From a virus (Duplodnaviria > Caudoviricetes): 54,507 nt of DNA. The position numbers and the translations under genes were made by a program. The notes beneath the pieces were generated by a model, which saw only the letters and a program-made list of their open reading frames with translations, ran no database searches and had not been told where the DNA came from. The DNA is taken from positions 1 through 54,507 of the IMG/VR virus record IMGVR_UViG_3300020045_002715. One strand, written 5' to 3'. This document shows, in pieces, positions 3,321 through 47,670 of this stretch. Within the stretch, counting starts at the first letter, position 1. Each line of letters starts with the position of its first letter.

Positions 3321-3391
3321 ACGTACATGGGCAGCGCAGCAGAAAATGCGTTATACTGTATCTTTAAGTGATGCGGAATAGCGGAGGGATT

Positions 3392-3874
3392 ATGGCAAAG
3401 CTCCAAGATTGGACTCAAGAAGAATTGAAGAAAGTTATCAGATACGAGCCTGATACTGGGCGCTTCTTCAAGGTGGCAACAGGTAAGGAAATTGGGCCGG
3501 GAAACAAGTCTCGATATTTGACGATCAGGATTGGCGACAACAAGCCGTATTACGCGCACAGACTGGCGTGGCTTTATGTGCATGGCGCCGTGCCTGATCA
3601 GTTGGATCATGTCAACGGCATCCCGCGAGACAACCGGATTGCAAACTTGAGATTGTGCAGCCATTCGCAAAACATGATTAACCGAGAGCGACAGGCAAAC
3701 AATAGGACCGGATATCGCGGCGTTAGATTGAGAGATACAGGTAAGTACGAGGCTGCAATCTGCCTAAATGGCAAAAAATACTACCTTGGCAGCAACTATG
3801 CTACGGCATTGGAAGCAGCAGAGGCATACAAAAAAGCATCGGACGAGGTCTACGCCGAGTTTGCAAGAAAATAA
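3392..3874 (+). CDS. HNH homing endonuclease with C-terminal AP2 domain
   Basis: YYAHRLAWLYVHG..DHVNGIPRDNRIANLR; NNRTGYRGV..YEAAI..KKYYLG..AAEAY. Confidence 0.92.
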   Translation: MAKLQDWTQEELKKVIRYEPDTGRFFKVATGKEIGPGNKSRYLTIRIGDNKPYYAHRLAWLYVHGAVPDQLDHVNGIPRDNRIANLRLCSHSQNMINRERQANNRTGYRGVRLRDTGKYEAAICLNGKKYYLGSNYATALEAAEAYKKASDEVYAEFARK

Positions 3875-3911: not shown

Positions 3912-4121
3912 ATGGCACGGATTGAATTTATTGGCAGCAACTTGTTTATCGGAATTGATACCCACGTGTACCCCTCGAAACTTGGGTACTGGATCGACAA
4001 GACTTTTGACCGTGGGATGCGCACCGACAGCCGGATCACCGTGATGGATGACTTCGGCAACCTGATTGATGTTCTTGACGCCGCCCACCAGCGTGCCGCA
4101 TACCGCCAAGCGCTGCACTAA
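3912..4121 (+). CDS. Hypothetical protein
   Basis: GGAG RBS; MARIEFIG...VMDDFGNLI. Confidence 0.5.
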   Translation: MARIEFIGSNLFIGIDTHVYPSKLGYWIDKTFDRGMRTDSRITVMDDFGNLIDVLDAAHQRAAYRQALH

Positions 4122-4155
4122 CAGCCCGCCCTTCGGGGCATCACTGGGAGTTATC

Positions 4156-5379
4156 ATGAACGCCACCAAATACGACATGCGCAAGTACGAAAACGCCGTG
4201 GACAATCAAGGCCCATGGCAGACGTGTTTTCAAAACGCGCTGACCTCGTCTATGGAGATGATGATGAAACAGGCGGGGCCTGATGTCGGGCAGTTGTCGC
4301 GCTTGCAGAACTACTACGACACGCGGGTGTATCAGGACGACGTTGGCGTGGATAGCGGCTCTGTGAGCTACGCGGCTCTGTTGGCTGCGCAACGTATTGG
4401 GATCGCGCCGGAAAGCCTGTGGAGCTACACGCAAGCCAATCTAATGCCAAAGCCTGGCGAAGCAGTCTACGCGGCTGCAAACGTCAAGGTGATGGACTAC
4501 GACAACATGCCTGTGTACTACAAGCCTACGGAGATTCGCGACTGGGTGCTGGATCATCTGTCGGAGGGCAAGAGCGTCATCATCGCAATGCACTTGCGGT
4601 ATTTCTTCAAGTACCAGAGCGGCCCGCTTGCACAGCAGGACAGCGACGGCAAGGGCGTGAGCTACGGCGGGCATGCGGTCGAGATTGTCGGCTGGGATGG
4701 CGATCTTAACGGTGGCAGCTACATTGTCAAGAATAGCTATGGCGCCAATTGGGGCGATCACGGCTACGGCTCGATCAGCTACAAACAGTTTGATTTCAGC
4801 AACAACTCGGACCTGATTTCGATGCAGTCAATCACCGGCATCAAGGTGGGCGACAAAGAGTACGATTTCCGCTTCAGCGACCTGCGCGAAACGGTCGCCG
4901 AGCAGTACACGACGATCCTTGGCCGCTCTGCGGATATTGCCGGCATGAACTGGTACACGGAAAAGGCGCAAGCCATCGTGGAAACCAAATGGCAGCTTGC
5001 CGAAAGCCTGATTAACTCGGCGGAGGGCAAGGCGCTGTACGAGGCTATGAGCAACACGCAGTTCGTGCAGCAAGTCTACAGTAACGTGCTAGGCCGTACG
5101 GCTGACACTGGCGGCTTGGAGTTCTGGAGCCACGCGCTTGACGATGGCGTATCACGCGGAAAGTTGTTCGCTGAGTTCCTGCAATCCATGGAGGCGCCGA
5201 ATGCTGAGAATCACGAACTGTTCGATAACAAGGTCAACATGAGCATGAATATCACGATAACTCATAATTACATGGGAAATCACAACACCGACGTAGCAAA
5301 GCTGCTAGCGCAAGTCACAGCCAATGATAACAACCTTGAGGTGCTGAAAATCGGCATCCCTGAAACTTGGAGCGTTTAA
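4156..5379 (+). CDS. Papain-like (C1 family) cysteine peptidase with C-terminal DUF4214-like repeats
   Basis: DNQGPWQTC (oxyanion Q, catalytic C), GGHAVEIVGW (H), YIVKNSYGANWGDHGY (N); C-terminal YTTILGRSADIAGMNWY and FVQQVYSNVLGRTADTGGLEFWSHALDDG. Confidence 0.85.
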   Translation: MNATKYDMRKYENAVDNQGPWQTCFQNALTSSMEMMMKQAGPDVGQLSRLQNYYDTRVYQDDVGVDSGSVSYAALLAAQRIGIAPESLWSYTQANLMPKPGEAVYAAANVKVMDYDNMPVYYKPTEIRDWVLDHLSEGKSVIIAMHLRYFFKYQSGPLAQQDSDGKGVSYGGHAVEIVGWDGDLNGGSYIVKNSYGANWGDHGYGSISYKQFDFSNNSDLISMQSITGIKVGDKEYDFRFSDLRETVAEQYTTILGRSADIAGMNWYTEKAQAIVETKWQLAESLINSAEGKALYEAMSNTQFVQQVYSNVLGRTADTGGLEFWSHALDDGVSRGKLFAEFLQSMEAPNAENHELFDNKVNMSMNITITHNYMGNHNTDVAKLLAQVTANDNNLEVLKIGIPETWSV

Positions 5380-6987: not shown

Positions 6988-7086
6988 GCTTGGGTAGCTC
7001 AACGGTCAGAGCAGTGATCTGGCAATGCGATTTGATTCGCCCGCCTGTTGCACGCGTAGCTGGTTCGACTCCAGCCCCTTGCGCCT
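6988..7086 (+). ncRNA. tRNA-like RNA or pseudo-tRNA with an expanded 40-nt anticodon arm
   Basis: TA-GCTC-AACGGTCA-GAGC D-arm; GCTGG-TTCGACT-CCAGC T-arm; acceptor GCTTGGG/CCCTTGC with two T-T mismatches; ends G-CCT. Confidence 0.65.
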
Positions 7087-35660: not shown

Positions 35661-35712
35661 TAGTCACTTCGGTGGCTTTTGTCCCTCTCCTTTACAGGGA
35701 GGGGGATTTTTT
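35661..35712. terminator. Tandem terminators at the late/early convergence
   Basis: AGTCAC-TTCG-GTGGCT-TTT and TCCCTCTCC...GGAGGGGGA-TTTTTT. Confidence 0.65.
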
Positions 35713-36230: not shown

Positions 36231-37097
36231 TTAGCCTTTCTTTACAGCGGCGAGAATGGCACGGAAATGATCGCGGCAGATTTTGCCCGCTTCTCCGCCG
36301 TCGAGCTTTCGGCGTGCGATTGGCGTATCGAAAGCTGCACGGAAGTATTCCGCTAGTTCGATCTGCTCATCACTTAGCCCTGCCTGCGCGCCGTTAGCGG
36401 GATGGGCGGCGAGGGCGCGTGCAGCGGCGGAATCAACTGGGTATAACCGCTGCACAGTGTCGATGGCATTATCCAGCGATTGCGGGTTTTCATGGCTCCC
36501 CACCAGTGCTTCCCCGACCATATCGTCCAATTCTGAATTGTCTCGGATATACCTGTAGCACGAAGCTTCAAGTGCTTCTTCCAGCGCCGCATCGCGCCCG
36601 CTATTCGGCTGCACGCTGGCGGCGACAAGCGCACGGCGGTGGCTTTTCTCTTGTCTGTCATACTGCTCTTTTGTGGCATCTATAAAGCCGATTCTGTTAT
36701 AAAAGACCTGATAAACAACATCATCGCCCTGCACTGGCGCAGCGGCTGGCACGGTGAAGTGGACCAGAACCTTTTGCGCAAACTTGATAAGCGCGTCTTC
36801 CATCAGACGATTTGGGATATCCCCTTTGAATCTGACGCCGCAATCATGCGCCAATTCCAGTGCATACACCTCATCGAATGGCCCTGCCTGCGCCGGTACG
36901 CTGGCGGCGCGCTGGGCAAGGGCGGCTTGCCATGAATTCCATGCTTCATCGACCCAGAACGAAGCATACCGGTGCGGAAGGTTGGGGTGGCGCGCAAAGC
37001 ACACGGCGGCATGCCGTGACCGAATGGATACCTCAAACGCCGCCCGCTCATCCTGCGGCAACTCCCCGCCCTGCTGTTTGTTGGTAGTGGTGGTCAT
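36231..37097 (-). CDS. Mosaic cassette protein A (linker-scaffold family)
   Basis: Starts MTTTTNKQQGGELPQDE after a GGAG RBS; shares five linkers with 42284-43084. Confidence 0.8.
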   Translation of the reverse strand: MTTTTNKQQGGELPQDERAAFEVSIRSRHAAVCFARHPNLPHRYASFWVDEAWNSWQAALAQRAASVPAQAGPFDEVYALELAHDCGVRFKGDIPNRLMEDALIKFAQKVLVHFTVPAAAPVQGDDVVYQVFYNRIGFIDATKEQYDRQEKSHRRALVAASVQPNSGRDAALEEALEASCYRYIRDNSELDDMVGEALVGSHENPQSLDNAIDTVQRLYPVDSAAARALAAHPANGAQAGLSDEQIELAEYFRAAFDTPIARRKLDGGEAGKICRDHFRAILAAVKKG

Positions 37098-37273
37098 GCT
37101 GCTCTCCCTGTATTTTTTGGTCCCTGCATAATCCAGCCAGCCGCCCATGCTTGCCGCGCCCACGTCGGCCACGACAAGCGCATGGCTCGCTGGTGGTTAA
37201 GCGACAGCCCGAGTGAATAGGCGCTACGGCCCATCGCCTCAAATGCCCGCTTTCCCGATGGCGGGCGCTTCAC
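37094..37273 (-). CDS. 59-aa protein with a ribosome modulation factor (RMF)-like pattern
   Basis: GTGA and ATGA overlaps on both sides; MKRPPSGKRAFEAMGRSAYSLGLS...ARQAWAAGW. Confidence 0.5.
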   Translation of the reverse strand: MKRPPSGKRAFEAMGRSAYSLGLSLNHQRAMRLSWPTWARQAWAAGWIMQGPKNTGRAA

Positions 37274-37983
37274 GGCTTCACCTCTGGCTGTGCTGGTGCT
37301 GCGTCTTCTTCTGACTGCCCGCTACTGTCGCAAGAAGAACATTCCTGCTCGGTTCCGATGTCAGCATCGCGCACCATCCATCCGGAGCCATGGCAAGCTC
37401 CGCATTCTGCTGGTGCTTCTGGTGCTGGTGCTGGCTGATGGCTAGCATTAATAAATGCAACCTCCAATGCAGCCTTAATAGCCCTTCGAATTATCTCTGG
37501 CTGTCCAAGCCGATAAAGATCCCCAATATTTTCTGCCGCCTCTACCATTTCATCAGTAACGCTCAGCGCCGCTTGCGCATGCTGCTGTGGGGCGACATAC
37601 GTTCCAGCATTAATTTGACCCATTTCATCCGGATTAAACCCACGGCCACACGGAGAAAGAAAATCGCCATGATCATTGCGGATGGAATCACCTACGACTT
37701 GAAACACAGGGCCGTGGATTTCTACCAGAGCCTTGTACATCTGCCTCTGGCTGTCCGACGTGAATTGCCCGTCAGGCTGCATCTTTAAGCCTTTCAGGCC
37801 ATTATGTGCTTTGTCTGTGATAGCAGCCACGGCGTGGTCCGTGTGAGTATTAATAAAACTTACAATATCGCTAAAAGGCTCCGCGCATCGCCCTGTAGTT
37901 TGCGTAACACGTGAGTATTGACGCAAAAGCTCAGTCAACTGTTTGCTATCCACCGTCTCAGCCTGCTTCAAATCGTTGTTCAT
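37270..37983 (-). CDS. Mosaic cassette protein C with C-terminal CxxCxGxG zinc finger
   Basis: AGGAG RBS; QHAQAALS linker shared with 43081-44301; CGACHGSG..CSSCDSSG. Confidence 0.75.
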   Translation of the reverse strand: MNNDLKQAETVDSKQLTELLRQYSRVTQTTGRCAEPFSDIVSFINTHTDHAVAAITDKAHNGLKGLKMQPDGQFTSDSQRQMYKALVEIHGPVFQVVGDSIRNDHGDFLSPCGRGFNPDEMGQINAGTYVAPQQHAQAALSVTDEMVEAAENIGDLYRLGQPEIIRRAIKAALEVAFINASHQPAPAPEAPAECGACHGSGWMVRDADIGTEQECSSCDSSGQSEEDAAPAQPEVKP

Positions 37984-38140
37984 GTTCTCTCCTAGTAGGT
38001 GTGTTTGATTCGTAATAGTACAGCAATTATTTGCTACGTATGTGGACGATCTGCAACAAATGCACAAATTAAATATTTCCTATAAGTTTGTGCTATATTG
38101 ATTCCTGAAGTAAACAAACCACAACACAAAAGGTAACGAC

Positions 38141-38416
38141 ATGACTAAAGCAATTCTCACCCCAGCACAGACCGCCATGGCCGACAAAAACGACATCATC
38201 CTTAACTGGTTGATTGACCATTTGCGGCTGAAAAACGACGCCGCACTCGCCCGTATCATGGATTCCGCCGCGCCGGTCATTTCCAAGATGCGCTACGGTA
38301 AGCTGCCGTTTGGCGCCGTCTACCAAATCCGCGCGCATGAACTCACCGGCCTGTCGATCCGCGAGATTAAAGACATGATCGGCGAGAAGTCGCTTGCTCG
38401 GATTGTGCTTGATTGA
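38141..38416 (+). CDS. XRE/Cro-like HTH protein in an oppositely oriented island
   Basis: LKNDAALARIMDSAAPVISKMRYGKLP..HELTGLSIREIK. Confidence 0.75.
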   Translation: MTKAILTPAQTAMADKNDIILNWLIDHLRLKNDAALARIMDSAAPVISKMRYGKLPFGAVYQIRAHELTGLSIREIKDMIGEKSLARIVLD

Positions 38417-38468
38417 CGCTCGGCAACGGAGTAAAGTAAGCCCACAGCAGTCTTAACCGGAGAGCGCC

Positions 38469-38618
38469 ATGGAAGTCATTACCCGCCCAGCAAAAGAAGC
38501 CGTACGCCATTGGCTTGCTGACCGCCGTGTTGCTGGCGCTCCTCCTCCTACTCCAGAACAAATCAGGCGCGAGCTTTCGTGGGGTATGACTGCCGATAAG
38601 CAAAGTTCCACAAGATAA
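38469..38618 (+). CDS. 49-aa small protein
   Basis: GGAG RBS; MEVITRPAKEAVRHWLADRR..PPPTPEQIRRELSW. Confidence 0.6.
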   Translation: MEVITRPAKEAVRHWLADRRVAGAPPPTPEQIRRELSWGMTADKQSSTR

Positions 38619-38744
38619 AGCCCGGTATTTGCAGCAGACAGAGCTGTACCGAGACGGGTAAATCTCGGTGACATAATCCCCGCACGCGCTTGCGGTTCTG
38701 TTGAGCGAGAAACCGCGTTAGCTGATCTGCACCAAGCGCGCAAT

Positions 38745-38779
38745 AAAAAGCCCCGACATTTGATAGTGTCGGGGCTTTT
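38745..38779. terminator. Bidirectional intrinsic terminator
   Basis: AAAAAGCCCCGACA..TGTCGGGGCTTTT. Confidence 0.85.
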
Positions 38780-38795
38780 GCTTTATGCCTAGAAT

Positions 38796-39167
38796 TTACA
38801 GTTTGATGCGATCAAGCAAGTAGCGCAAGCTGATGTTGTTCTGCTCAATAAATAGTACAAACCCAGCCAACTGATTGCCCATCGGAGAAGAAGGCTCTCG
38901 GCCATTTCCGATAGCTGCGCCACTAGTTGATTCTGGTGCCGATGGCGGCATTACTGGCGACAAACGTTGATGGAGGTTTGACAGCAACTGCGCCGTATCT
39001 GTAAGCGCGCTTTCTAGTCGGTCTATTTGCTCGGGGATTTCCTGAACGTGCGGCTTCTTACTTTCGCAGTATTCTGCCTGCCCGAATTGCCCACGTGGCA
39101 TCGGTGATTGCCCCACAGTCTGCGATCCAGCGAGAAATCGATTTAGGTGACACGCATCTTCTTGCAT
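38796..39167 (-). CDS. Hypothetical protein
   Basis: AAGGA RBS; coiled coil ..LHQRLSPV.. Confidence 0.6.
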   Translation of the reverse strand: MQEDACHLNRFLAGSQTVGQSPMPRGQFGQAEYCESKKPHVQEIPEQIDRLESALTDTAQLLSNLHQRLSPVMPPSAPESTSGAAIGNGREPSSPMGNQLAGFVLFIEQNNISLRYLLDRIKL

Positions 39168-39213
39168 TGTAATTCCTTTCAATTGCGCCACTCAACCGGA
39201 GCGGCTACGGATA

Positions 39214-39411
39214 CTATTCTTCCCTAGGAGTCTTCCGCCTATCCGCCACGCGCCTATCAGGCAATCCGCTAGCCTGGTAGGGAAGGTCAAGCTTACGCCT
39301 GTCGCGACTCTCCTGCCTAGCTGCCATGCGTGCGTCAATGGTAGCCATGAGTTTGTCGATGTAGTCACGCTGCTCTTGCGTGGCTGATTCGTAGGCTTCT
39401 TGCGAGTTCAT
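39214..39411 (-). CDS. Small protein with repeated DRR motifs
   Basis: SRDRRK..PDRRVADRRK. Confidence 0.6.
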   Translation of the reverse strand: MNSQEAYESATQEQRDYIDKLMATIDARMAARQESRDRRKLDLPYQASGLPDRRVADRRKTPREE

Positions 39412-39866
39412 TTTACCTCCACGCCAGCGGCGGTAAGGGCCGCGAGGCCAGCTTGATATGCATCGCTGCTTTCGAGGTCAATCCAGTAAAGCATACTTGT
39501 GCATTGTTTCAAGGCATCTACTAACTGCGCATTAGGAGCAGAATTGGCATTAATGTAGTTGATAATGCCTTGGCGGGCCGATTGATACTCATCCGCGTTG
39601 TATTCTTCGCAGGAGCTTTCATGCGAAAACTTATCAAGCAGGGCCATAAATTCGGGAGTGTCAATTCCTGCATCGCTCATCGCCTCTTTAGGCGGCTGAG
39701 AGGCCGCTTTAAGATCAACCAGCGTGCGCGTTACCTCGTACACTTCGATAGGCCCATCCTGCTCGTATTGGGCCGCATAGTGTTTGATTTCGTTGAGCGC
39801 GTTGCTTCCCATAGTGCCAGCTACGCACATATCATCCTGCCATACTTCAAATTCTCGGTCGTTCAT
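39408..39866 (-). CDS. Hypothetical modular early protein
   Basis: Coupled ORF. Confidence 0.65.
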   Translation of the reverse strand: MNDREFEVWQDDMCVAGTMGSNALNEIKHYAAQYEQDGPIEVYEVTRTLVDLKAASQPPKEAMSDAGIDTPEFMALLDKFSHESSCEEYNADEYQSARQGIINYINANSAPNAQLVDALKQCTSMLYWIDLESSDAYQAGLAALTAAGVEVK

Positions 39867-39878
39867 TCCGCTCCCCCT

Positions 39879-40451
39879 TTAAGTACGTGCGCGGATAGCT
39901 GCGGCGGCGCCCATCAGCACAGCCATGTTCATTGCATCAAGATTCTTTTGCGTCTCGCATACCTTTGCTGCGGCTTCACGCTCGGCAAGCACGGCGGCGC
40001 GGGCGTAGGCGCGAACCCAATCGATCAACTTTTCATCGTGGCCGCCTTCAAAACCGAATTCAACCAGCCGGGAAAGAATTTTGCCGAAGTACTGCGAGTT
40101 GAGGGCTTCATCGATCTGCGTCAGCGACAGAGCTATGTCTTTTTCCGGGAGCAGCCTAGCGGCCTGCCATGCCATCCATGCCGCTTGATCGGAATCATCG
40201 ACATAGGACCCATCGTGGCGGCGAATCATGTATTCGTCATCAGTGATGTCCAACCGAAGCATTTCACGCTCGAACAGCGTGCGCTCGCCGTCAACTGGTT
40301 CCGGCAGCTCCCCTACCGCACCATTAGCAGGAGAGGGAGTGGCGATAGCTTCGCAAATTGCGTCAGCCAACAAGGCACGATTTGATTCTGTCGCGCCAGA
40401 CGTCCACAGTACGCGGTCGATGACAGCGCGAATCTTTTGGTCTTGTCTCAT
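39879..40451 (-). CDS. Modular early protein
   Basis: PANGAVGELPEP, ERTLFE..AAWMAWQAA, AEREAAAKVCE..AAAIRAR modules. Confidence 0.7.
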   Translation of the reverse strand: MRQDQKIRAVIDRVLWTSGATESNRALLADAICEAIATPSPANGAVGELPEPVDGERTLFEREMLRLDITDDEYMIRRHDGSYVDDSDQAAWMAWQAARLLPEKDIALSLTQIDEALNSQYFGKILSRLVEFGFEGGHDEKLIDWVRAYARAAVLAEREAAAKVCETQKNLDAMNMAVLMGAAAAIRART

Positions 40452-41188
40452 GCTTTTTCCTTTGCCATAGCGTTGATAGCTCCGATGAAGTCGTTGAATT
40501 CATTTTCGTTGCCCGACATTGCACAGGTTTCGATGATCTTGAAGCGCCGGCCGTGCGCCGCGCCGGGGATATGCCCTGTGCGCAAAACGCGCTCAAACGT
40601 TCGCCAGTTCGCAGCATCCCGCGCCACATCACCCGCTTGCTGTGCGACTGGTTGCTGGGCGGCATAGAGCATGCGCGTTTCATATGGCCCACCGCCGTCT
40701 TCGGGATCTGGAAAGCCGTCATACCAGTCAGAACAACCACACTTGCGCCATTGGTTGATCTGCCCCACCGCTTCCACTTGCTGTATTGGCTGCGCATCAG
40801 CCAACTCCTGAAATGCCGACAGCAGATCATGAACGGACAGCGTGATGCGCCGATCCTCAATGTCACCGACAGCGTCCATGTGTTCGATATTCGTACCGAG
40901 AAAATCAATCACGTCTTCCGGCGTGCTTGGAAGCGTTGGCATGGCTGGCTGTTCGACAGAAGCGGATTGACCAAGCTGATATGCGAACCACACAGCATCA
41001 AAGCTGGCAAGGCGGTACTCGCCCATAGCTACCTTGCGAGCAGCCTCAACGGTTGCATTAAGCTCACCACGCTGCTCTGCCGCTTTGCAATGCGTGCAAT
41101 CAAGATCGCCGCCCGTCCACTTTGACAGCGAGCCTGTATCAAGGCACGCAGCGCACCGCGCTTCCATTGGCGTTACTGGGGCGGTCAT
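40448..41188 (-). CDS. Modular early protein with N-terminal zinc finger
   Basis: CAACLDTG..CTHC; YETRMLYAAQQP. Confidence 0.7.
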   Translation of the reverse strand: MTAPVTPMEARCAACLDTGSLSKWTGGDLDCTHCKAAEQRGELNATVEAARKVAMGEYRLASFDAVWFAYQLGQSASVEQPAMPTLPSTPEDVIDFLGTNIEHMDAVGDIEDRRITLSVHDLLSAFQELADAQPIQQVEAVGQINQWRKCGCSDWYDGFPDPEDGGGPYETRMLYAAQQPVAQQAGDVARDAANWRTFERVLRTGHIPGAAHGRRFKIIETCAMSGNENEFNDFIGAINAMAKEKA

Positions 41189-41364
41189 TTTGCACCCTTA
41201 GCGGCACAAAACACAACGCCTTCGCGAGTATCTGCCTTGTCATACTGACGCTTCCATTCTTTTGCTGCTGCTTGGCAAGCAGCTTGCGTATTGAATTCAA
41301 CGCTTCCAACGGCAACGCCTTTTGCGTTAAACCCGACCATTGCGACAACCAAAATGTAGATCAT
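41185..41364 (-). CDS. 59-aa putative exported/membrane peptide
   Basis: GGAG RBS; MIYILVVAMVGF..EFNTQAACQAAA..FCAAK; ATGA overlap with the next gene. Confidence 0.6.
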   Translation of the reverse strand: MIYILVVAMVGFNAKGVAVGSVEFNTQAACQAAAKEWKRQYDKADTREGVVFCAAKGAK

Positions 41365-41408
41365 TGCTCACTCCATATGATGCTGGCTAACCAGCGTTTA
41401 GATGATTA

Positions 41409-41437
41409 ATCATACCGCAGCAATTATCCGCACGCAA
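41409..41437 (-). promoter_or_regulatory. Promoter with GCGGATAA motif
   Basis: TTGCGT-17 bp-TATGAT. Confidence 0.65.
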
Positions 41438-41491
41438 GACAAATAGCTAAAGTAGCGCAGAAACAACAAAGCCCGACTAGCGGGCCTTGGA

Positions 41492-41722
41492 TCAGCGTTT
41501 CATGCAGGTTGCCGTTACCTTGGCCGACTTGTTTAGCGCCAGCATCTGCGCTTGCCTGAGCGGCAGGCCGATCCGCTTCTGGTTGTAGCAGCCGAGCCAG
41601 TCGGACGGCGGCTCAAACTGCACGTACACATGCGGGTAGGTCAGCGCCTCGCCTGATGGGCCTTTAGCCGGGCCAGTAGCCAAGGTGATGACGTAGACCA
41701 GTTGCCAAAGTGAGAGTGTCAT
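41492..41722 (-). CDS. Small putative exported protein
   Basis: Hydrophobic N-terminus, two Cys. Confidence 0.55.
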   Translation of the reverse strand: MTLSLWQLVYVITLATGPAKGPSGEALTYPHVYVQFEPPSDWLGCYNQKRIGLPLRQAQMLALNKSAKVTATCMKR

Positions 41723-42039
41723 GGCTGGTCGCCTCCTGCCGCCTTGACGCGTGCTAGCTTACCCTCGGGCCAGGCTGCAACCTCGGCCTGCGCGCTGGCT
41801 ATCTGCTGGGCTAGCGTGGAGGGAGGTACAGTTTTAATCCCGTCGAATTCGACAGAATTGGAAGGCACTACTGGTTCGCTAGGCGCTTGAGACGCATCAG
41901 GCAACAGCGCCATGATGGCAGCGTGCATGCGCTCGGGGCTGTCGCCGCGCTGACATGCGCGGTAGATCACTTCCAAGATCGCGTGGCTGATGACGCTTTG
42001 ACCTTCCAGCGTCGCCGGAAATTTGTTGTCGGTGCTCAT
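41719..42039 (-). CDS. Hypothetical protein
   Basis: Coupled ORF; SNSVEFDGIK module. Confidence 0.6.
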   Translation of the reverse strand: MSTDNKFPATLEGQSVISHAILEVIYRACQRGDSPERMHAAIMALLPDASQAPSEPVVPSNSVEFDGIKTVPPSTLAQQIASAQAEVAAWPEGKLARVKAAGGDQP

Positions 42040-42041
42040 GC

Positions 42042-42284
42042 CTATCCTTCCTTCTTCTGTGGTGCGGCGGCGGGATCAGCTTCGGACCAGCACAATTTCC
42101 TGGAATAGCTGCTTGGCATACGCTTTACCCGTCCAGTTTTTTCCATCGCCTTCAAGCGCCTCAACACGAAAGCGGTGTCGAGCGCCTTGAATCCCTTCTC
42201 GCGCCTGAGAATGTTAGCGATGACGTAGGTCATCAAGCGGCCGTACATCGCCGCGACGATTTGATCGTCCGTTGGCTTCACCAT
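42042..42284 (-). CDS. Small winged-HTH-like protein
   Basis: MTYVIANILR..TAFVLRRLKAMEKTGRV. Confidence 0.6.
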   Translation of the reverse strand: MVKPTDDQIVAAMYGRLMTYVIANILRREKGFKALDTAFVLRRLKAMEKTGRVKRMPSSYSRKLCWSEADPAAAPQKKEG

Positions 42285-43084
42285 CACGCGCCGCCTTTCT
42301 GTGCAGCAGCAACAGCAGCGTCACGGCGCTCGCGCCAGTCGCCGCCGATGGACGATTGGGACTCGACCAGCAGGTCCAACAGTACGGATTCCCCTGCCTT
42401 CGCGCCGTTAGCGGGATGGGCGGCGAGGCGATGGGCGGCGATTTCCCTGAGCATGGCTTCCTCACGTGACGTTCTGCCGTCCAAGTAGGCGCGCTCTTTT
42501 GATAGACCAGTATGCCAGGGCTCCACCAGCGCCGCATCGCGCCCGCTATTCGGCTGCACGCTGGCGACTTCCATCCACGCAATCCACGCTTCGTTGACCC
42601 ATGACAGGGCGTACAGGTGCGGTAGGTGGGGATGCCTATCCAAACTGGCGTATTGGTTCCTGCCTCTGATGTGCTTCTCGAACCTCTCGCGGGCATCGCC
42701 CTGCACTGGCGCAGCGGCTGGAACAGGGGCGGTGTAGAGCGCCCATTGCCACACTAGGCGCGTGAATTCATCACCCAGCGGGTTGCCTTTGTACTTGCGA
42801 TTGATGTTGTACATGACCTCGCGCAAATGCTCGTCAGTCATTTCTCGCGGGACGAGTTTCCACCCCTCGGGCTCTGCTGCAGGCTGCTGCACTCCCTGCG
42901 CCGGTACGCTGGCGGCGCGCTGGGCGAGATAGGCGCGGGCGTATTCGGCCATCTGGTCAGCGGTATAGCCGGCTATTGCATACGGGCGCTCGTCTTTGCT
43001 TCGCATTGTGGCGTGACAGGCCGGCAGCGGCGGCAGCTCATCCTGCGGCAACTCCCCGCCCTGCTGTTTGTTGGTGCTGGTCAT
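42284..43084 (-). CDS. Mosaic cassette protein B (linker-scaffold family)
   Basis: MTSTNKQQGGELPQDE; shares five linkers with 36231-37097. Confidence 0.8.
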   Translation of the reverse strand: MTSTNKQQGGELPQDELPPLPACHATMRSKDERPYAIAGYTADQMAEYARAYLAQRAASVPAQGVQQPAAEPEGWKLVPREMTDEHLREVMYNINRKYKGNPLGDEFTRLVWQWALYTAPVPAAAPVQGDARERFEKHIRGRNQYASLDRHPHLPHLYALSWVNEAWIAWMEVASVQPNSGRDAALVEPWHTGLSKERAYLDGRTSREEAMLREIAAHRLAAHPANGAKAGESVLLDLLVESQSSIGGDWRERRDAAVAAAQKGGA

Positions 43085-44301
43085 TGTTTTTCTCCAGTAG
43101 CTATAGCGGCGTCAACAGCGGAATCCAAACCACTCTTAGGCCCCGGCGTTAAGTTAATACTTTCAGGATCATCGCCGATATGCTCATCACGAAGGTAACG
43201 ATACCGTGCCGCCTCGCGCGTTATATCCGGCTGCGCTGGTACCGCGTCTAGTTCAACGCCGCAATGCGGGCAGTCGCCATCTGCATCAGCGCGCTGCTCG
43301 GGCGTATAGGGTTTTTTGCAACTCCAACATTTCAGTACGGCCGCTGGTGCTGCGGCTGGCCGATGGCTGGCGGCGAGGATGGCAGGAATTAATTCAGACG
43401 GCAAAACCATATCCCACGCCCCGTATCCAACCCCAACAGCAGTTTCAACCGACGAGACAATCTCGTTGATCTGCTCATCGCTCAGCGCCGCTTGCGCATG
43501 CTGCGGTGGGGCGGCTGGCTTGGCTTCTTCGATCACTTCCAGCGCTTCGGCCCATGGGCAATTCACATTGCTGTGCTCGCCGATGTCGCGCCCGAAATAC
43601 TTGGTGATGGCTTCGGCCAGCTTGTCGGCCCATTCGTGATACTGTTCACGGTCGCGGATCGTTTGGTCCCATAGGTCATCGTCGGACGGGCGCATTTCAA
43701 ACACTGGAACAGACTTCCATTTCCCCGCGCCGTCAATGTCGCCCTGTGCACGCGCATCATTGATATGTTCCTGTGCGCTTTGATGATCCGGCGTCACAAA
43801 CTCAGGATTGCCGCGCTCATCAATTATCACAAAAGCGAAAGGCTCCGCCGCATCCACCGGTTCCGCTGGCGTGGCCGGTGCTGCATCTTCGCAGCGGCCC
43901 AGTGGATTGCGGCAACTTTGCGCATCGCATGCGGCTGGGTTGTCGCATGACTGAGGCGAAGAGTCGCGCTTGATCGCCCCCATAACGCTCTCTACCTGCG
44001 CATCGGTGATCGCTGGATTATAGCGGCGTAGATCGGCTGGCGTGTTAGGCTGCGGCTTGGCCTGAAGTGCCGCCAGTTCCAGCGCCAGTTTTCCGTAGGC
44101 GGCTTGCGACTGCTCAAGCGCAGCCTGCAAGCGCTCTGCGTCACTCTGCGCCTGATTGTGCAGGTCCAGCAGCTTTGCGTTGATGTCACGCTCGGCCGAC
44201 AGTTCGGATTCCTGGCGGCGCACCAAAGCGATTACTTCTAATGCCTCAGCTTGCTTGAGCATCCCATGCGTAGCCCATTCCTGATATTTGTCTAAGTTCA
44301 C
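43081..44301 (-). CDS. Mosaic cassette protein D (coiled coil plus modules)
   Basis: QHAQAALSDEQI linker, CWSC..CPHC finger, EAARYRYLRD..LDSAVDAAI terminal module. Confidence 0.75.
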   Translation of the reverse strand: MNLDKYQEWATHGMLKQAEALEVIALVRRQESELSAERDINAKLLDLHNQAQSDAERLQAALEQSQAAYGKLALELAALQAKPQPNTPADLRRYNPAITDAQVESVMGAIKRDSSPQSCDNPAACDAQSCRNPLGRCEDAAPATPAEPVDAAEPFAFVIIDERGNPEFVTPDHQSAQEHINDARAQGDIDGAGKWKSVPVFEMRPSDDDLWDQTIRDREQYHEWADKLAEAITKYFGRDIGEHSNVNCPWAEALEVIEEAKPAAPPQHAQAALSDEQINEIVSSVETAVGVGYGAWDMVLPSELIPAILAASHRPAAAPAAVLKCWSCKKPYTPEQRADADGDCPHCGVELDAVPAQPDITREAARYRYLRDEHIGDDPESINLTPGPKSGLDSAVDAAIATGEKQ

Positions 44302-44570: not shown

Positions 44571-44969
44571 TCAATCGTAGAATTTTACGCCCTGCTGTGC
44601 CCCATACGCAACGCAATACTCGATTATGCTGCTCATCCTGGAGATGGTCATAGTGGCCGTAGACTCGCGGAGGTTGACTGGCTCACCCTCAATTCCGATA
44701 ACGAATTGCGGCTCGTTACCTGTAGCTACAGTATGAGCGCTAACCATGAGAACTTTCCACTGTTCAGGCGTCAGGAATTCTTCGTTGTAGCGCAACTGCT
44801 TTGAGAACTCGCCAAAGATCGCATGAAGCTTTGCGGACTGCTCCAGCGAACGTTTGGACGGTCCTAGCGTAAAGCCGTAACCTATCGGGCATGTGCGAAC
44901 TGCATCAACGGCCCGCGCTCGCACTTGTTCGTTTATGATGACGAACGGCCTTTTTGTGCCGTCCGACAT
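44571..44969 (-). CDS. ninB: NinB/Orf family recombination protein
   Basis: KRSLEQSAKLHAIFGEFSKQ..EQWK..ESTATMTISRMSSIIEY..GVKF. Confidence 0.85.
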   Translation of the reverse strand: MSDGTKRPFVIINEQVRARAVDAVRTCPIGYGFTLGPSKRSLEQSAKLHAIFGEFSKQLRYNEEFLTPEQWKVLMVSAHTVATGNEPQFVIGIEGEPVNLRESTATMTISRMSSIIEYCVAYGAQQGVKFYD

Positions 44970-44970
44970 G

Positions 44971-46104
44971 TTAATACTCTATCCTGACGTTAGCCACCTT
45001 GCCTTGCGCAATCAGCATCACGCACTGCTTAGCGCATTCCTCAGTCATGCCGCCAGCAACCAACGATGCCAGTGCTTCGCGGTTGATCTTGGCTTTGTGC
45101 GCTTTGTTGCGCTCGCGGGCCGCTGCTTCATCAGCAATCCGTTTTGCCTCTGCCACTACTCGGTCTTTCTCGTCCTGAACGGCGCGTTGCTTGTCGGCTT
45201 CGGCTTTTGCTGCTGCCGCTGCTTGCTGGCGCTTCGCCTCATCAGCTTCAGCAATACGGCGTTGCTCGGCCTGTTGCGCTTGAATCTTTAGTTTCGACTC
45301 GCGCAGTGCTGCCGCCTCCTGCTCGGCTAGTGCGCGGTCACGTTCCTGCTTCAATGCGAGGGCCGCAGCGGCTTCTTTGCGCTCTGCTTCTGCCTTGGCA
45401 TCAGCGATAGCTTTTGCGGCCTTAGCGGCTTCCTGCGTCGCTTTCTCGGAAGCTTCGCGCTGCGCCTGTTCGGCTGCGGCTTTGGCAATTGCTGCATCAC
45501 GGTCTGCTTGTGCGCGCGCCTCTGCCTCTACGCGTAACCGTGCAAGCTCTGCGGCTTCCTCGTCACGCTTGATGAGTTCCGCCAACCGCAACGAAAGACC
45601 TTCAAGCGTATGTGCTTTCTCTTGAGTAGCATCCGCCATAAATTCTTGCCAGTCGGGTCCAATTTCGATTGCGGTCACGCGCTCAATTTCGGCTTTGACT
45701 TCTTCAACCGTATTGCAAGCGGCGCCAGGAAACGCTGCCATACGCGCATTTAGCGCATCGATTCGCTCCTTCTCTCGCGCCGCCATTTCGTCCAAAGGCT
45801 TTTGGTGGACTTCGATCATTGCTTCAATGCGTTCCTCGATAGATTCGGCTTCCGAATCGATGGCGCGGCCAATACGCAACGATTCGGCTTTAGCTTCCTT
45901 GCGGACCCGCTCAAGCGCGCCCTTGCTCTTACGGAGGCTAAAGATATGGCTGCGCGCCTCCTTTTCGCCTTTCTTGGATGCATAGTCAAAAACTACAGCC
46001 GCATTGTCTTTTTCAAGCTGCACAAGCTCCGTGTAAAACTTCTTGTAGCCGGCCACTTGCGTAGTATCGGCATTCAGCACTACAACTGCGGTTTCTTCGG
46101 TCAT
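44971..46104 (-). CDS. Coiled-coil protein of the recombination module
   Basis: Long Ala/Glu/Lys heptads; HKAKINREAL..IAQGKVANVRIEY C-terminus. Confidence 0.75.
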   Translation of the reverse strand: MTEETAVVVLNADTTQVAGYKKFYTELVQLEKDNAAVVFDYASKKGEKEARSHIFSLRKSKGALERVRKEAKAESLRIGRAIDSEAESIEERIEAMIEVHQKPLDEMAAREKERIDALNARMAAFPGAACNTVEEVKAEIERVTAIEIGPDWQEFMADATQEKAHTLEGLSLRLAELIKRDEEAAELARLRVEAEARAQADRDAAIAKAAAEQAQREASEKATQEAAKAAKAIADAKAEAERKEAAAALALKQERDRALAEQEAAALRESKLKIQAQQAEQRRIAEADEAKRQQAAAAAKAEADKQRAVQDEKDRVVAEAKRIADEAAARERNKAHKAKINREALASLVAGGMTEECAKQCVMLIAQGKVANVRIEY

Positions 46105-46105
46105 T

Positions 46106-46864
46106 TTATGCTTTCAAAATAGTTAAGTTGTTTACTACCATTTTTTCAAATGCCTCTAACTGCAAGGCCATTTTGTCAATGAATTCGTCGTCGCGCATGA
46201 TGCGCTTCACGTACAGGTCTTTGCCGCACTTAGCCAGCATTGGCGCATACATGATGAAGTCAAGCCACTTGCGGCCCGTCAGCCACATGCCGCCTTGGAT
46301 TTGGTGGATGTACTCGCTAACGTCACCAGTGCGCCACATTGCCATGATTTTGACGCTGTCAATCGGGGCCTTAATTTCAATCAGGCCATCGTCATCAACA
46401 AGGCCATCGGAGCTATACGCGAAAACACCGTCATCATCAACGCACAGGCCCGACTCGGTAACGAACGCTTGCGTCCTGGCTTCATAGTGCATGCGCGCCA
46501 AGGCTTCCATTTCGTGGCCGCGCTCAAGCACCCACGCTTTAGCCGGCTCTTGGAACGGGCCTCCGTTGATGCGCTCAAAGGCCAGATCGGCTGCGTAGCG
46601 CTTGGCCGTATCCGAAGGCTCTACAGTCAACTCGCCGCGAAGTGCGCGCTTGACCGTATCCGAGCTAGGAGCGGCCTTGTATCCAGCAAAGCCGATAGCC
46701 TCTTTCTCTGGCATCCCGCCAAGCACAGCATCAACGTACTTCTGCTGGCGCTCATCCAAGCCGCCAACTGTGCTGATGGCATCGGCATAGCAAGAGGCGG
46801 TTATTAGGCCCGATCTGGACTGAAACCAAGCAGGCGAACCCTGTAAGCACTCTATAAACCTCAT
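46106..46864 (-). CDS. YqaJ/lambda-exonuclease family 5'-3' exonuclease
   Basis: QGSPAWFQSRSGLITAS, ERGHEMEALAR, YSSDGLV..LIEIKAP, QIQGGMWLTGRKWLDF. Confidence 0.92.
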   Translation of the reverse strand: MRFIECLQGSPAWFQSRSGLITASCYADAISTVGGLDERQQKYVDAVLGGMPEKEAIGFAGYKAAPSSDTVKRALRGELTVEPSDTAKRYAADLAFERINGGPFQEPAKAWVLERGHEMEALARMHYEARTQAFVTESGLCVDDDGVFAYSSDGLVDDDGLIEIKAPIDSVKIMAMWRTGDVSEYIHQIQGGMWLTGRKWLDFIMYAPMLAKCGKDLYVKRIMRDDEFIDKMALQLEAFEKMVVNNLTILKA

Positions 46865-47670
46865 GGCTGGCCTTTCGTGCGCTGTGCATCCAGTTCTTCA
46901 TCGGTAGGCTTTGCTACTGGTGGCGGTGCCGGGAATTCAGCCTTACGCGTGGATACAGCCGCTTTGAATTCTTTGTATGCCCGCTGATCGCCAACGGCTT
47001 GGATTGCACCAACGCCGGATGCCCACACAAGCTCCAAGTCTTTCAAAGTTGGCGCGGCTTGAGCTTTGGCAATCCAGTTATCCGCCAAAGTGGTATCAAG
47101 CTCCGCAGCATGTCCATCATCATCGGACTGATCTTTAGTCGCCACGCCAGTAGCCGCGAGGAGCGTGTACCGCTGCAAATACGTGATGGTAGAGGCAATC
47201 TGCTGAATCTGGTTCTTCTTGCCGCTGTCGTCCTTCTGTGCGGTCATAGGCGTGCTTTCGCTATGCCCCTGCTTGTGGGTCAGTACGCACGTTACGGTGA
47301 TGTTTGCACCGCTCTGGTCAATAGTCCAGCGGTGGCTAAAGCCATGGGCTGCAAGGCCCGCTACGATGGCCTCTGTGACGTTACCGATGGTTGCATGCAT
47401 GTAGCTAGTGCCAGAGAACGCGACCAGCTTATCTTTGACGATTTCAGGCGGATTCTTTTTGAACTCGGCCATATCAGCAACAAATGCCTTGCGTGCTTCG
47501 TCGGCATCAAACTCGCGCTTGAGCATCATAAACTCGCGCACTTCGGCAATCGTGGCGCCGTTTTGCATTGCATACACAAGCAAATCTGCCGGCGTGGTGC
47601 CATAGCTCTTTTGCTGTACTAAAGGCAAAGCTTCGCCCTGCTGGTCTACCAGTTGCATTTCGTTTGACAT
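46861..47670 (-). CDS. ERF family single-strand annealing recombinase
   Basis: YMHATIGNV, VTCVLTHKQGHSES, QQIASTITYLQRYTLLAATGVAT..DDDG. Confidence 0.88.
   Translation of the reverse strand: MSNEMQLVDQQGEALPLVQQKSYGTTPADLLVYAMQNGATIAEVREFMMLKREFDADEARKAFVADMAEFKKNPPEIVKDKLVAFSGTSYMHATIGNVTEAIVAGLAAHGFSHRWTIDQSGANITVTCVLTHKQGHSESTPMTAQKDDSGKKNQIQQIASTITYLQRYTLLAATGVATKDQSDDDGHAAELDTTLADNWIAKAQAAPTLKDLELVWASGVGAIQAVGDQRAYKEFKAAVSTRKAEFPAPPPVAKPTDEELDAQRTKGQP

Follow-up and report, generated by a model that had tools for sequence, protein, structure and literature searches.

Two models are commonly opposed for the origin of phage mosaics. In one, exchange takes place at 'linkers', short sequences that are conserved; in the other, which is generally favored, illegitimate joining occurs at random and selection acts on the products. 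The linker idea belongs to Botstein's modular theory of phage evolution, in which short repeats provide the homology for shuffling modules. Sites of homologous exchange are also marked, in polymorphic toxins, by VENN in CdiA and PxxxxDPxGL in Rhs, and by the conserved flanks of pilin and vlsE cassettes. Within single genes, the 'recer' interdomain sequences of the protein PAB and protein G family of Gram-positive cocci, reportedly put forward by de Chateau and Bjorck in 1996, are said to be in-frame DNA at domain borders that promotes intron-free module shuffling. Here, we describe a series of short in-frame linkers, K1 to K8, in four early genes (A to D) of an uncultured tailed virus, IMG/VR record IMGVR_UViG_3300020045_002715, analyzed over all of its 54,507 bp (hereafter, the window). 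The linker DNA recurs in other phages around differing modules, and we argue that the linkers probably serve as sites of module exchange.

Several phage systems offer points of comparison. In the gp38 adhesins of T-even phages, glycine-rich conserved motifs are reported to separate hypervariable segments and to form the core of one virion-adhesin domain (PMC3157838). The PeSL cassettes of T4-type phages are intergenic promoter-terminator cassettes that shuffle whole genes (PMC2839356). In lambda and Stx phages, the Ea22 proteins encoded in the exo-xis region are described as mosaic variants, one with DUF551, and the word 'linker' is absent from that paper (PMC10834534); a further paper concerns Ea22-type proteins of the exo-xis region (PMC7093339). 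A survey of mosaic phage proteins (Smug et al. 2023, PMC10684548) shows domain shuffling to be ongoing, with a focus on receptor-binding proteins, endolysins and polymerases, and its text has 0 occurrences of 'linker'. Our searches of the literature outside subscription journals turned up no account of linkers of this kind in the early proteins of phages.

In-frame linkers in four early genes

The four genes and all their linkers lie on the minus strand, in a leftward early operon running from ~47.7 to 35.7 kb. They form two pairs: D (43081-44301, 406 amino acids) with B (42284-43084, 266 amino acids), and C (37270-37983, 237 amino acids) with A (36231-37097, 288 amino acids from the ATG at 37097). 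The stop of D and the start of B overlap by 4 nucleotides (nt), and 172 nt separate the end of C from the ATG of A. The product of D consists, in order, of an N-terminal long helix, a disordered stretch, an alpha/beta module, K6, a helical mini-domain, K7, a CxxC...CxxC zinc ribbon, K8 and a RYRYLRD module. That of C starts with an orphan helical module, followed by K6, a helical mini-domain, K7, a DnaJ-like CxxCxGxG...CxxC cassette and K8, directly before the stop. Genes A and B carry K1 to K5 in the same order. Local alignment of the open reading frames (ORFs) of this arm, proposed in a preliminary description of the DNA, matched residues 131-235 of C to 264-360 of D (36%, E 1e-9) and clearly related A to B (E 7e-20). 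The latter two have five patches of 31-54 nt in common, at 91-100%, and one module that occupies different slots in the two genes.

K6 lies at 37560-37596 in C and at 43468-43513 in D (APPQHAQAALSDEQI). The preliminary description had reported that C and D share a 35-bp segment with one mismatch, and this was borne out: 37560-37594 and 43479-43513 are direct repeats that agree at 34/35 nt (E 3.6e-11). The 24-nt core of K6 occurs at 2 sites in the window when up to 3 mismatches are allowed, and no match appeared in any of 100 shuffles. The peptide read on the minus strand is APQQHAQAALS in C and APPQHAQAALS in D. The copy in C has the canonical form, identical over 35 nt to three other loci (L085, L086 and L091; L numbers are used below for loci on other contigs, and P numbers for related proteins), and 43468-43504 in D has exact 16-mers in common with 29 loci.

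K7 was found at 37419-37446 in C (ASHQPAPAP, 3 mismatches to the consensus) and at 43343-43383 in D (AILAASHRPAAAP), the latter being a 41-nt island with exact 16-mers in common with 11 loci. The motif ASH(Q/R)PA had been noted in both genes, and its DNA (37419-37446 and 43344-43371) indeed agrees at 86% of 28 nt; a 26-nt consensus of the relatives has two matches in the window, with 3 mismatches in C and 1 in D, and none in 100 shuffles. Read on the plus strand, K7 of C shows repeats of CTGGTGCTGG, which we take to resemble the E. coli Chi octamer with one mismatch, a likeness of no known relevance for the host. A third shared motif, A(A/V)PAQP(E/D), stood only in part. It corresponds to K8, at 43225-43248 in D (DAVPAQPD) and at 37270-37305 in C, where it ends the gene (DAAPAQPEVKP, stop). 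The two copies agree at 13/15 to 13/16 nt only, which is weak alone, while two contigs (L160 and L163) have the C copy, stop codon included, without a single difference over its 34 nt (37270-37303), and the same terminus is found in P0015 and P0018.

The linkers of A all have a copy in B. K1 (37031-37091 in A, NKQQGGELPQDERAAF; 43021-43081 in B) agrees over 54 nt at 91%; its 47-nt islands have exact 16-mers in common with 5 loci (A) and 6 loci (B), and its 30-nt core is exact in L175. K2 (LAQRAASVPAQ; 36881-36933 and 42889-42928) is common to L160 and L164, K3 (VPAAAPVQGD; 36722-36752 and 42694-42724) agrees over 31 nt at 97%, and K4 (ASVQPNSGRDAAL in A) lies at 36581-36621 and 42526-42566. 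K5 together with LSDEQI (AAHPANGAQAGLSDEQI in A) spans 36358-36414, with its copy at 42392-42428. LSDEQI had also been claimed for D, rightly: 36360-36389 in A and 43468-43497 in D agree at 83% of 30 nt. The stretch 36358-36374 is moreover exact in L092, L093 and L161, where it stands after K6.

Between the linkers, the Cys4 cassettes of C and D differ, as the preliminary description had stated. The zinc ribbon of D (43249-43344, CWSC...CPHC) is of the CxxC...CxxC type and matches phrog_25582 (E 5.6e-4). The cassette of C (37306-37419, CGACHGSGW...CSSC) is of the CxxCxGxG type; it has both CGACHGSG and CSSC and scores 19.7 bits against DnaJ_CXXCXGXG (Pfam PF00684, cut-off 32.7). A further claim, that D and A share a YRY(I/L)RD module, held in a weaker form. 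The module of D (43084-43224, RYRYLRD...LDSAVDAAIA) is C-terminal in P0001 and P0040-P0047 and also occurs in L003 and L004. Its possible counterpart in A (36459-36572, CYRYIRDN...LDNAID) shows some similarity, 38% over 37 amino acids in protein alignment (E 0.087), and A was the best non-self match of a hidden Markov model (HMM) of 18 proteins (E 0.0028); as the profile score was 8 bits, we grade this link as weak.

Residues ~200-265 of D (43513-43700, minus strand; ...YHEWADKLAEAI...GEHSN.NCPWAEALE) constitute a very widespread portable sub-module of ~65 residues, which corresponds to phrog_6628 and matched no Pfam family. When the best 150 of the 1,230 cluster representatives from a library of 1.8 billion are considered, most match D in this part alone, at varying positions in proteins of 73-786 amino acids.

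The AlphaFold model of D has a mean predicted local distance difference test score (pLDDT) of 71.9, and in it residues 3-81 form a long helix, 115-140 are disordered and 156-236 make up a confident alpha/beta module. K6 is modeled as coil between helices 250-259 and 275-292, and pLDDT falls below 50 at K7 (residues 313-325) and K8 (348-358). The model of C is weak (mean pLDDT 59), with values below 50 at 113-160, which includes K6 at 131-141, and at 222-237. A wide structural search returned coiled coils only, for residues 1-85.

The linkers are conserved as DNA

The exact 24-mer of K6 was found in 7 stretches of viral contigs, and an exact 23-mer in 10 stretches of metagenome contigs. After removal of duplicates (L087, L005/L006, L159, equal to L089, L093, equal to L092, L166, equal to L091, and L167, equal to L088) and of re-fetches (L094, L096, L097, L099 and L100), 19 distinct copies were left, two of them in the window and 17 on other contigs. 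Each of these stands in frame and specifies QHAQAALS. The copies are mostly unrelated to one another over the 40 residues that precede K6 and the 50 that follow it. Mean pairwise DNA identity is 0.42-1.0 from position -12 to +29, with 0.30 and 0.47 at two silent codon positions, and 0.21-0.54 outside this interval, the background being reached within ~10 nt on each side; positions 0-22 were fixed by the search, and the shoulders were free.

Since an exact-DNA search is biased, we used a fully degenerate peptide scan. In viral contigs, a codon-blind IUPAC scan for QQHAQAAL(S) returned nine stretches, and all nine are canonical, five with no difference and four with one silent difference in 27 nt. 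In one genome per prokaryote species (bacteria and archaea), the same scan gave a single canonical stretch among 57 (L146, titled Aquabacterium sp. MAG); the remaining 56 differ at 3-11 of 27 positions and stand in unrelated contexts. K7 behaved alike: a codon-blind scan for ASHQPAAAP found seven stretches, of which the three in cassette context have 0 mismatches and the four out of context have 4-9, in frames interrupted by stops. The one match to K1 (QQGGELPQDE) has 0 mismatches. As a yardstick, identical residues in a conserved neighboring gene have the same codon at 112/252 (L006), 113/254 (L007) and 102/224 (L008) positions. Given the weakly biased codon usage of the phage, the chance that two independent encodings of the 12 residues of K6 are identical is 2e-6. 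From the canonical codons in the peptide scans, this yardstick and this chance, it follows that the linker is conserved as DNA.

In a comparison of 21 genes, 4 from the window and 17 from relatives, the sharing of DNA is confined to linkers. Exact 15-mer islands common to at least 3 contigs all measure 15-49 nt; they comprise K6, K7, K1, AAAPAIQQEGAAL, AALASQASKGAGV, PSPAQAQPVADA, RSRANGN, GSERDA and three short module motifs. The window itself has 10 islands of at least 30 nt with exact 16-mers in fetched phage loci, eight of which are linkers in A-D; the other two belong to the central module of D and to the Erf gene. Overall, the linkers are rich in Pro, Ala and Gln.

The slots between linkers hold differing modules

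K7 follows K6 by 39-95 amino acids in 17/19 copies by pattern and in an eighteenth (L092) by eye; L165 ends earlier. The slot between the two (43372-43479 in D, 37447-37560 in C, a helical mini-domain in both) is occupied in the relatives by helical mini-domains of differing sequence, by longer unrelated inserts (L091, L098 and L146) or, in L086, by DUF551 (Pfam PF04448; residues 164-230, 24.9 bits, cut-off 22). The content after K7 varies as well: the DnaJ-like finger of C (also in L089, L163 and L164, and in other contexts in P0049, P0050 and P0051), the zinc ribbon of D (also in P0018, there between K7 and K8), a Lar-like finger (L092) or no finger. P0001, the one full-length relative of D, has the same helix at its N-terminus, all three linkers (K6, K7 and K8) and a C-terminal module identical to that of D, with different modules between them, and P0015 has two copies of K6 around a module that the window has in another gene (40448-41188, residues 123-179). 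Some modules are also found as stand-alone small proteins of 73-154 amino acids. The guanine and cytosine content at third codon positions varies by module, from 0.29 in the mini-domain of C to 0.66 in the N-terminal helix of D, vs 0.73 in K6, in small samples.

Similarity also breaks at the linkers when the copies are compared pairwise. Among the 171 pairs of the 19 K6 copies, five have a flank of at least 65% nucleotide identity, and never on both sides. Three of these are true one-sided pairs: D with L165 (upstream, 82%), L090 with L095 (upstream, 86%) and L158 with L160 (downstream, 75%). In L088-L158 and L158-L161, the matching flank reflects the K7 end, which falls within the 120 nt compared, and not a module. 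At the protein level, an exhaustive search with D returned 1,230 cluster representatives at E <=1e-3, 319 at 1e-10 and 14 at 1e-30. When 165 of the 171 stored proteins (P0048 to P0053 omitted) were re-aligned to D, all matched, in 170 stretches. The right ends of these on D lie at 263-277, that is K6, in 102 cases, at 278-290 in 28 and at 251-262 in 10 (140 in 251-290); a further 12 lie at 306-325 (K7), 2 at 348-362 (K8), 8 at the end of D and 8 elsewhere.

Other searches gave fewer relatives. The protein search with C found 3 partial homologues only, and a protein-level search of viral contigs found no relatives of C; those of D in viral contigs match the RYRYLRD module only. A word search with residues 258-325 of D gave 3 matches only, the query being too short for a database of that size. 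Two unusual loci were seen. At the corresponding place in L007 (11808-12887, plus strand), the N-terminal LIRKQEA and the C-terminal QQGQKAPGAA are kept, and SAPQQQAP stands instead of K6. In L165 (350-1060, minus strand; 1,061 bp, coverage ~1 by name), a pyridoxal-phosphate-enzyme-like fragment and another unrelated stretch are fused to the central module of D and K6.

Linker order and the two-gene scaffold

The linkers keep their order across the 21 genes. K6 comes first wherever another linker occurs, K7 precedes K1 in 3/3 genes, AIQQEGAAL follows K7 in 5/5 and GSERDA follows AIQQEGAAL in 2/2. The exceptions are repeats: of K6 in L089 and P0015, and of K7 in L161, where the second K7 lies past AIQQEGAAL. 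The preliminary description had inferred that this linker family is cross-linked to the one joining A and B, and that a two-gene scaffold is duplicated, with C before A as D is before B. Both points agree with what we found. K6, K7 and K1 stand in one reading frame in L164, L086 and L161, and L164 also has K2, so that L164 and L086 fuse what C and A, and D and B, split. In L160 and L172, one gene ends after K8 and the next opens with K1, as the window does twice. From the linker order and these split and fused relatives, we conclude that a single ordered scaffold, which some phages have in split and others in fused form, is present twice in the window, as C-A and as D-B.

Module swapping at linkers and its alternatives

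We consider it likely, from the comparison of sequences, that these ordered, disordered and in-frame linkers serve as short-homology crossover sites for module swapping. Each protein would consist of small modules that fold independently of one another, with short, predicted-disordered, Pro/Ala/Gln-rich linkers between them. K1-K8 supply 20-50 nt of DNA that is near-identical, including silent positions, across otherwise diverged phages, and in the same order. Because they are identical, in frame and colinear, the linkers could act as crossover points, and exchange between co-infecting phages, prophages or two copies in one genome would swap the module of a slot with the frame intact. Swapping would presumably proceed by homologous recombination, for which either the phage's own exonuclease and Erf-like annealing protein or the RecA of the host could be responsible. 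In recombineering, phage annealing proteins can use homology arms of about linker length. Repeated exchange and gene conversion would keep the linkers uniform, and it is presumably by the recombination process that this uniformity is upheld. The earlier proposal that the arm is a pool of recombinable mini-domains is supported by the slot variation, in the amended form that the pool is spread over the phage population and not confined to the arm. The outcome named beforehand as its refutation, slots that do not vary among relatives and shared segments owed to one recent local gene conversion, did not occur.

More tentatively, and with some doubt on our part, the linkers may constitute an ordered address system (N-terminal module, K6, K7, K8 or K1, K2-K5) under selection for evolvability, as translated recombination adapters for which C-A and D-B would be mutual donor and acceptor. 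If this were true, the phage population would re-assort small host-directed domains combinatorially and in frame, a natural counterpart of adapter-based cloning. It would also be a working example of Botstein's long-doubted 'linkers', within genes instead of between them. As for the modules, we infer that they are host-interaction accessories. The finger that follows K7 in L092 (465-1904, minus strand) is Lar-like (PF14354, 26.9 bits, cut-off 28.6), a hint that some modules may counter host defenses.

Several points weigh against module swapping as the explanation. Recombination is a conclusion that we infer from comparison. The relatives are all metagenome assemblies, and one of them, L165, is probably an assembly chimera. 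They were gathered via K6, so that the K6 counts are ascertained; K7, K1, K2 and K8 were not used for gathering. L007, the closest relative by the neighboring gene (70% amino acid identity), is without K6 at the corresponding place. Regarding protein function, no structure in PDB or BFVD was matched by Foldseek at E <=1e-3. Finally, homologous modules agree at 75-86% of nucleotides, vs 84-94% over 50 nt for the adjacent linker (100% in the 23-nt search core). As the linkers are more alike than the homologous modules beside them, homogenization or selection on linker DNA must be assumed, and the difference points to one of these two, homogenization by repeated exchange or selection on DNA.

Stricter conservation of linker DNA than of the adjoining homologous modules would also be expected if a dedicated enzyme, a site-specific recombinase or a nuclease such as an HNH endonuclease, recognized the linkers and started local gene conversion, in place of general recombination. 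An HNH endonuclease is coded in the window (3368-3874), and the 9-mer GCGGCGCTG ends three linker families, occurring 7 times in the window (4 times inside linkers) vs 2.1 expected, a count reached by 1/100 shuffles. However, at least 10 different linker sequences are common to contigs, with no core in common beyond GCGGCGCTG, so one recognition site fails as an explanation. Moreover, all linker copies are direct repeats, not inverted ones (between 35.6 and 44.6 kb, no inverted pair is better than one of 24 nt with 75% identity), there is no recombinase gene beside A-D, and no such PHROG family was matched among the 58 window ORFs scanned. Because of the many unrelated linker sequences and the direct repeats, we regard a dedicated enzyme as unlikely.

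We also find it improbable that the linkers are kept for the role of their peptide, as protease sites that release mini-proteins or as a docking motif, with recombination incidental. Such a role leaves the silent positions unexplained: all nine K6 matches in the scan of viral contigs use the same codons, vs ~44% in the neighboring gene. The linker peptides also differ from one another, and no single protease rule is apparent. In its favor, the linkers are coil or of low confidence between folded modules, as cleavage sites would be, the phage codes a papain-family Peptidase_C1 (56.6 bits, cut-off 20.7), and some modules, as noted above, also exist as small stand-alone proteins. Processing by the papain-like protease may be an additional role of the linkers.

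Short repeats can also mislead assemblers into joining unrelated contigs, and L165, in which a metabolic-enzyme-like fragment is joined to the gene, as well as the shortness of several other contigs (1-8 kb), would suit an artefactual origin of the junction variety. Nevertheless, the window, with its terminal repeats, represents a complete record and contains K6 in two contexts, seven further K6 contigs measure 43-98 kb, and some junctions were recovered from more than one metagenome (L005 and L006; L092 and L093). Every junction is in frame inside a long ORF, and the repeats measure 15-49 nt. An assembly artefact is therefore very unlikely to account for the variety. We give almost no credence to local history only, in which the C-A unit was duplicated, or C and D underwent a single recent gene conversion, with no wider system: within-genome copies are indeed the most alike (K4 agrees at 41/41 nt between A and B vs 29/31 nt with L088, and K1 is exact over 40 nt between A and B), but the slots vary among relatives, the 17 further K6 copies on other contigs have other, unrelated modules on both sides, and it is D's K6 that has a private mismatch, C's K6 being the form found elsewhere.

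Other mechanisms were considered for the arm. A shufflon or other invertible segment was rejected, the linker copies being direct and the 58 ORFs scanned against PHROGs including no recombinase. A diversity-generating retroelement was likewise rejected: no reverse-transcriptase family was matched among these 58 ORFs (some small ORFs unscanned), and the repeats are linkers of 15-54 nt, not copies of a variable part. RNA structure as an explanation for the linkers is not supported. The four linker regions have unremarkable folding energies (z -0.3, +1.5, -0.06 and -0.7), the single match of an Rfam scan of the window is a tRNA outside the linker genes, and shuffled sequences contain sites resembling promoters and terminators at least as often as the arm does.

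Genomic setting

The virus record is complete, with direct terminal repeats, and its layout is lambdoid: the plus strand has the genes for replication, terminase, portal, capsid and lysis. The early operon opens, upstream of A-D, with the gene of the Erf-like single-strand annealing protein (46861-47670), followed by an exonuclease (46106-46864), a phrog_1376 protein (44971-46104) and, just before A-D, NinB (44571-44969), all on the minus strand. The recombination functions coded in the window thus comprise the Erf-like annealing protein, the exonuclease, NinB, NinG/Rap and RusA. The DNA of the arm gave zero matches, near or distant, to records of cultured phages, D is matched among these over 10% of its length only, in one Pseudomonas phage, and the capsid protein has at most 50% identity to any record. 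The phage is therefore without a close cultured relative.

The extent of the arm given in the preliminary description, 36-44 kb, needs qualification: A-D and one module of the gene at 40448-41188 (minus strand) are tied to the linker network, and the other small genes are not. Residues 123-179 of that gene's product are 54% identical to the module of P0015 that two K6 linkers flank, and its N-terminal CxxC...CxxC resembles the start of P0051, a carrier of the zinc cassette of C. From these matches, the gene appears to use the same module pool. The gene at 39879-40451 (minus strand) adds another shared module of the arm, with 79% identity between its residues 7-34 and residues 6-33 of P0003, which also has the central module of D.

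At the point of convergence of the late genes with the early arm, there is a strong terminator-like hairpin (35681-35707, plus strand). Another hairpin of this kind (41467-41489, minus strand), inside the arm between 41492-41722 and 40448-41188, might split the arm into two transcription units. The Peptidase_C1 protein is encoded in the early region at 4066-5379 (plus strand) and also matches DUF4214 (72.6 bits). It has no obvious signal peptide at its likely start, MNATKYD; such a protease is unusual in a phage and could bear on the reading of the proteins as polyproteins. The tRNA match (6988-7083, plus strand) is 96 nt, long for a tRNA, and scores 34.2 bits against a gathering score of 29.

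Comparison with known systems

By position, D resembles Ea22: both lie in the leftward early operon past the recombination genes. D is similarly built as an N-terminal segment, a long helix and portable C-terminal domains, and the DUF551 in the slot of L086 has its parallel there. The family itself was not recovered. D gave no match to Ead_Ea22 (Pfam; IPR025153) at E <=0.01, and the N-terminal 83-141 amino acids of D and 5 relatives gave none at E <=10. There was no NCBIfam match at E <=0.1 either.

Like the PeSL cassettes, the linkers are short repeats that give homology for module shuffling among related phages. Unlike them, the repeats here are translated, in frame and intragenic, and it is protein domains that would be shuffled. 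Among described systems, gp38 and the recer sequences are the closest analogues. With gp38, the resemblance is that variable segments, which differ among related phages, stand between short conserved motifs of constant order, and that these motifs are natural places of exchange. The gp38 motifs are glycine-rich and part of a virion adhesin, whereas the linkers here are Pro/Ala/Gln-rich, appear as coil or low confidence in models and lie between separate modules of early non-virion proteins, so that whole domains, not loops, would be exchanged. Polymorphic toxins, pilin and vlsE have one junction and a variable end, or silent donors in one genome; the junctions described here form an ordered series, for which other phages would be the donors.

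For annotation, these observations suggest a rule for 'orphan' early proteins, namely to cut them at the linkers and treat the modules singly. For the debate on phage mosaics, they make the linker model testable, since the linkers can be read directly: they are intragenic and in frame, keep their silent positions and follow a fixed order with unrelated modules between them. In this respect, the linkers appear to have the feature attributed to recer sequences, short in-frame DNA at module borders that is conserved at the nucleotide level while the modules differ. Recer sequences are said to belong to bacterial surface proteins and a handful of genes; here, the setting is the early genes of phages, with at least 10 linker families in colinear order, each in many contexts.

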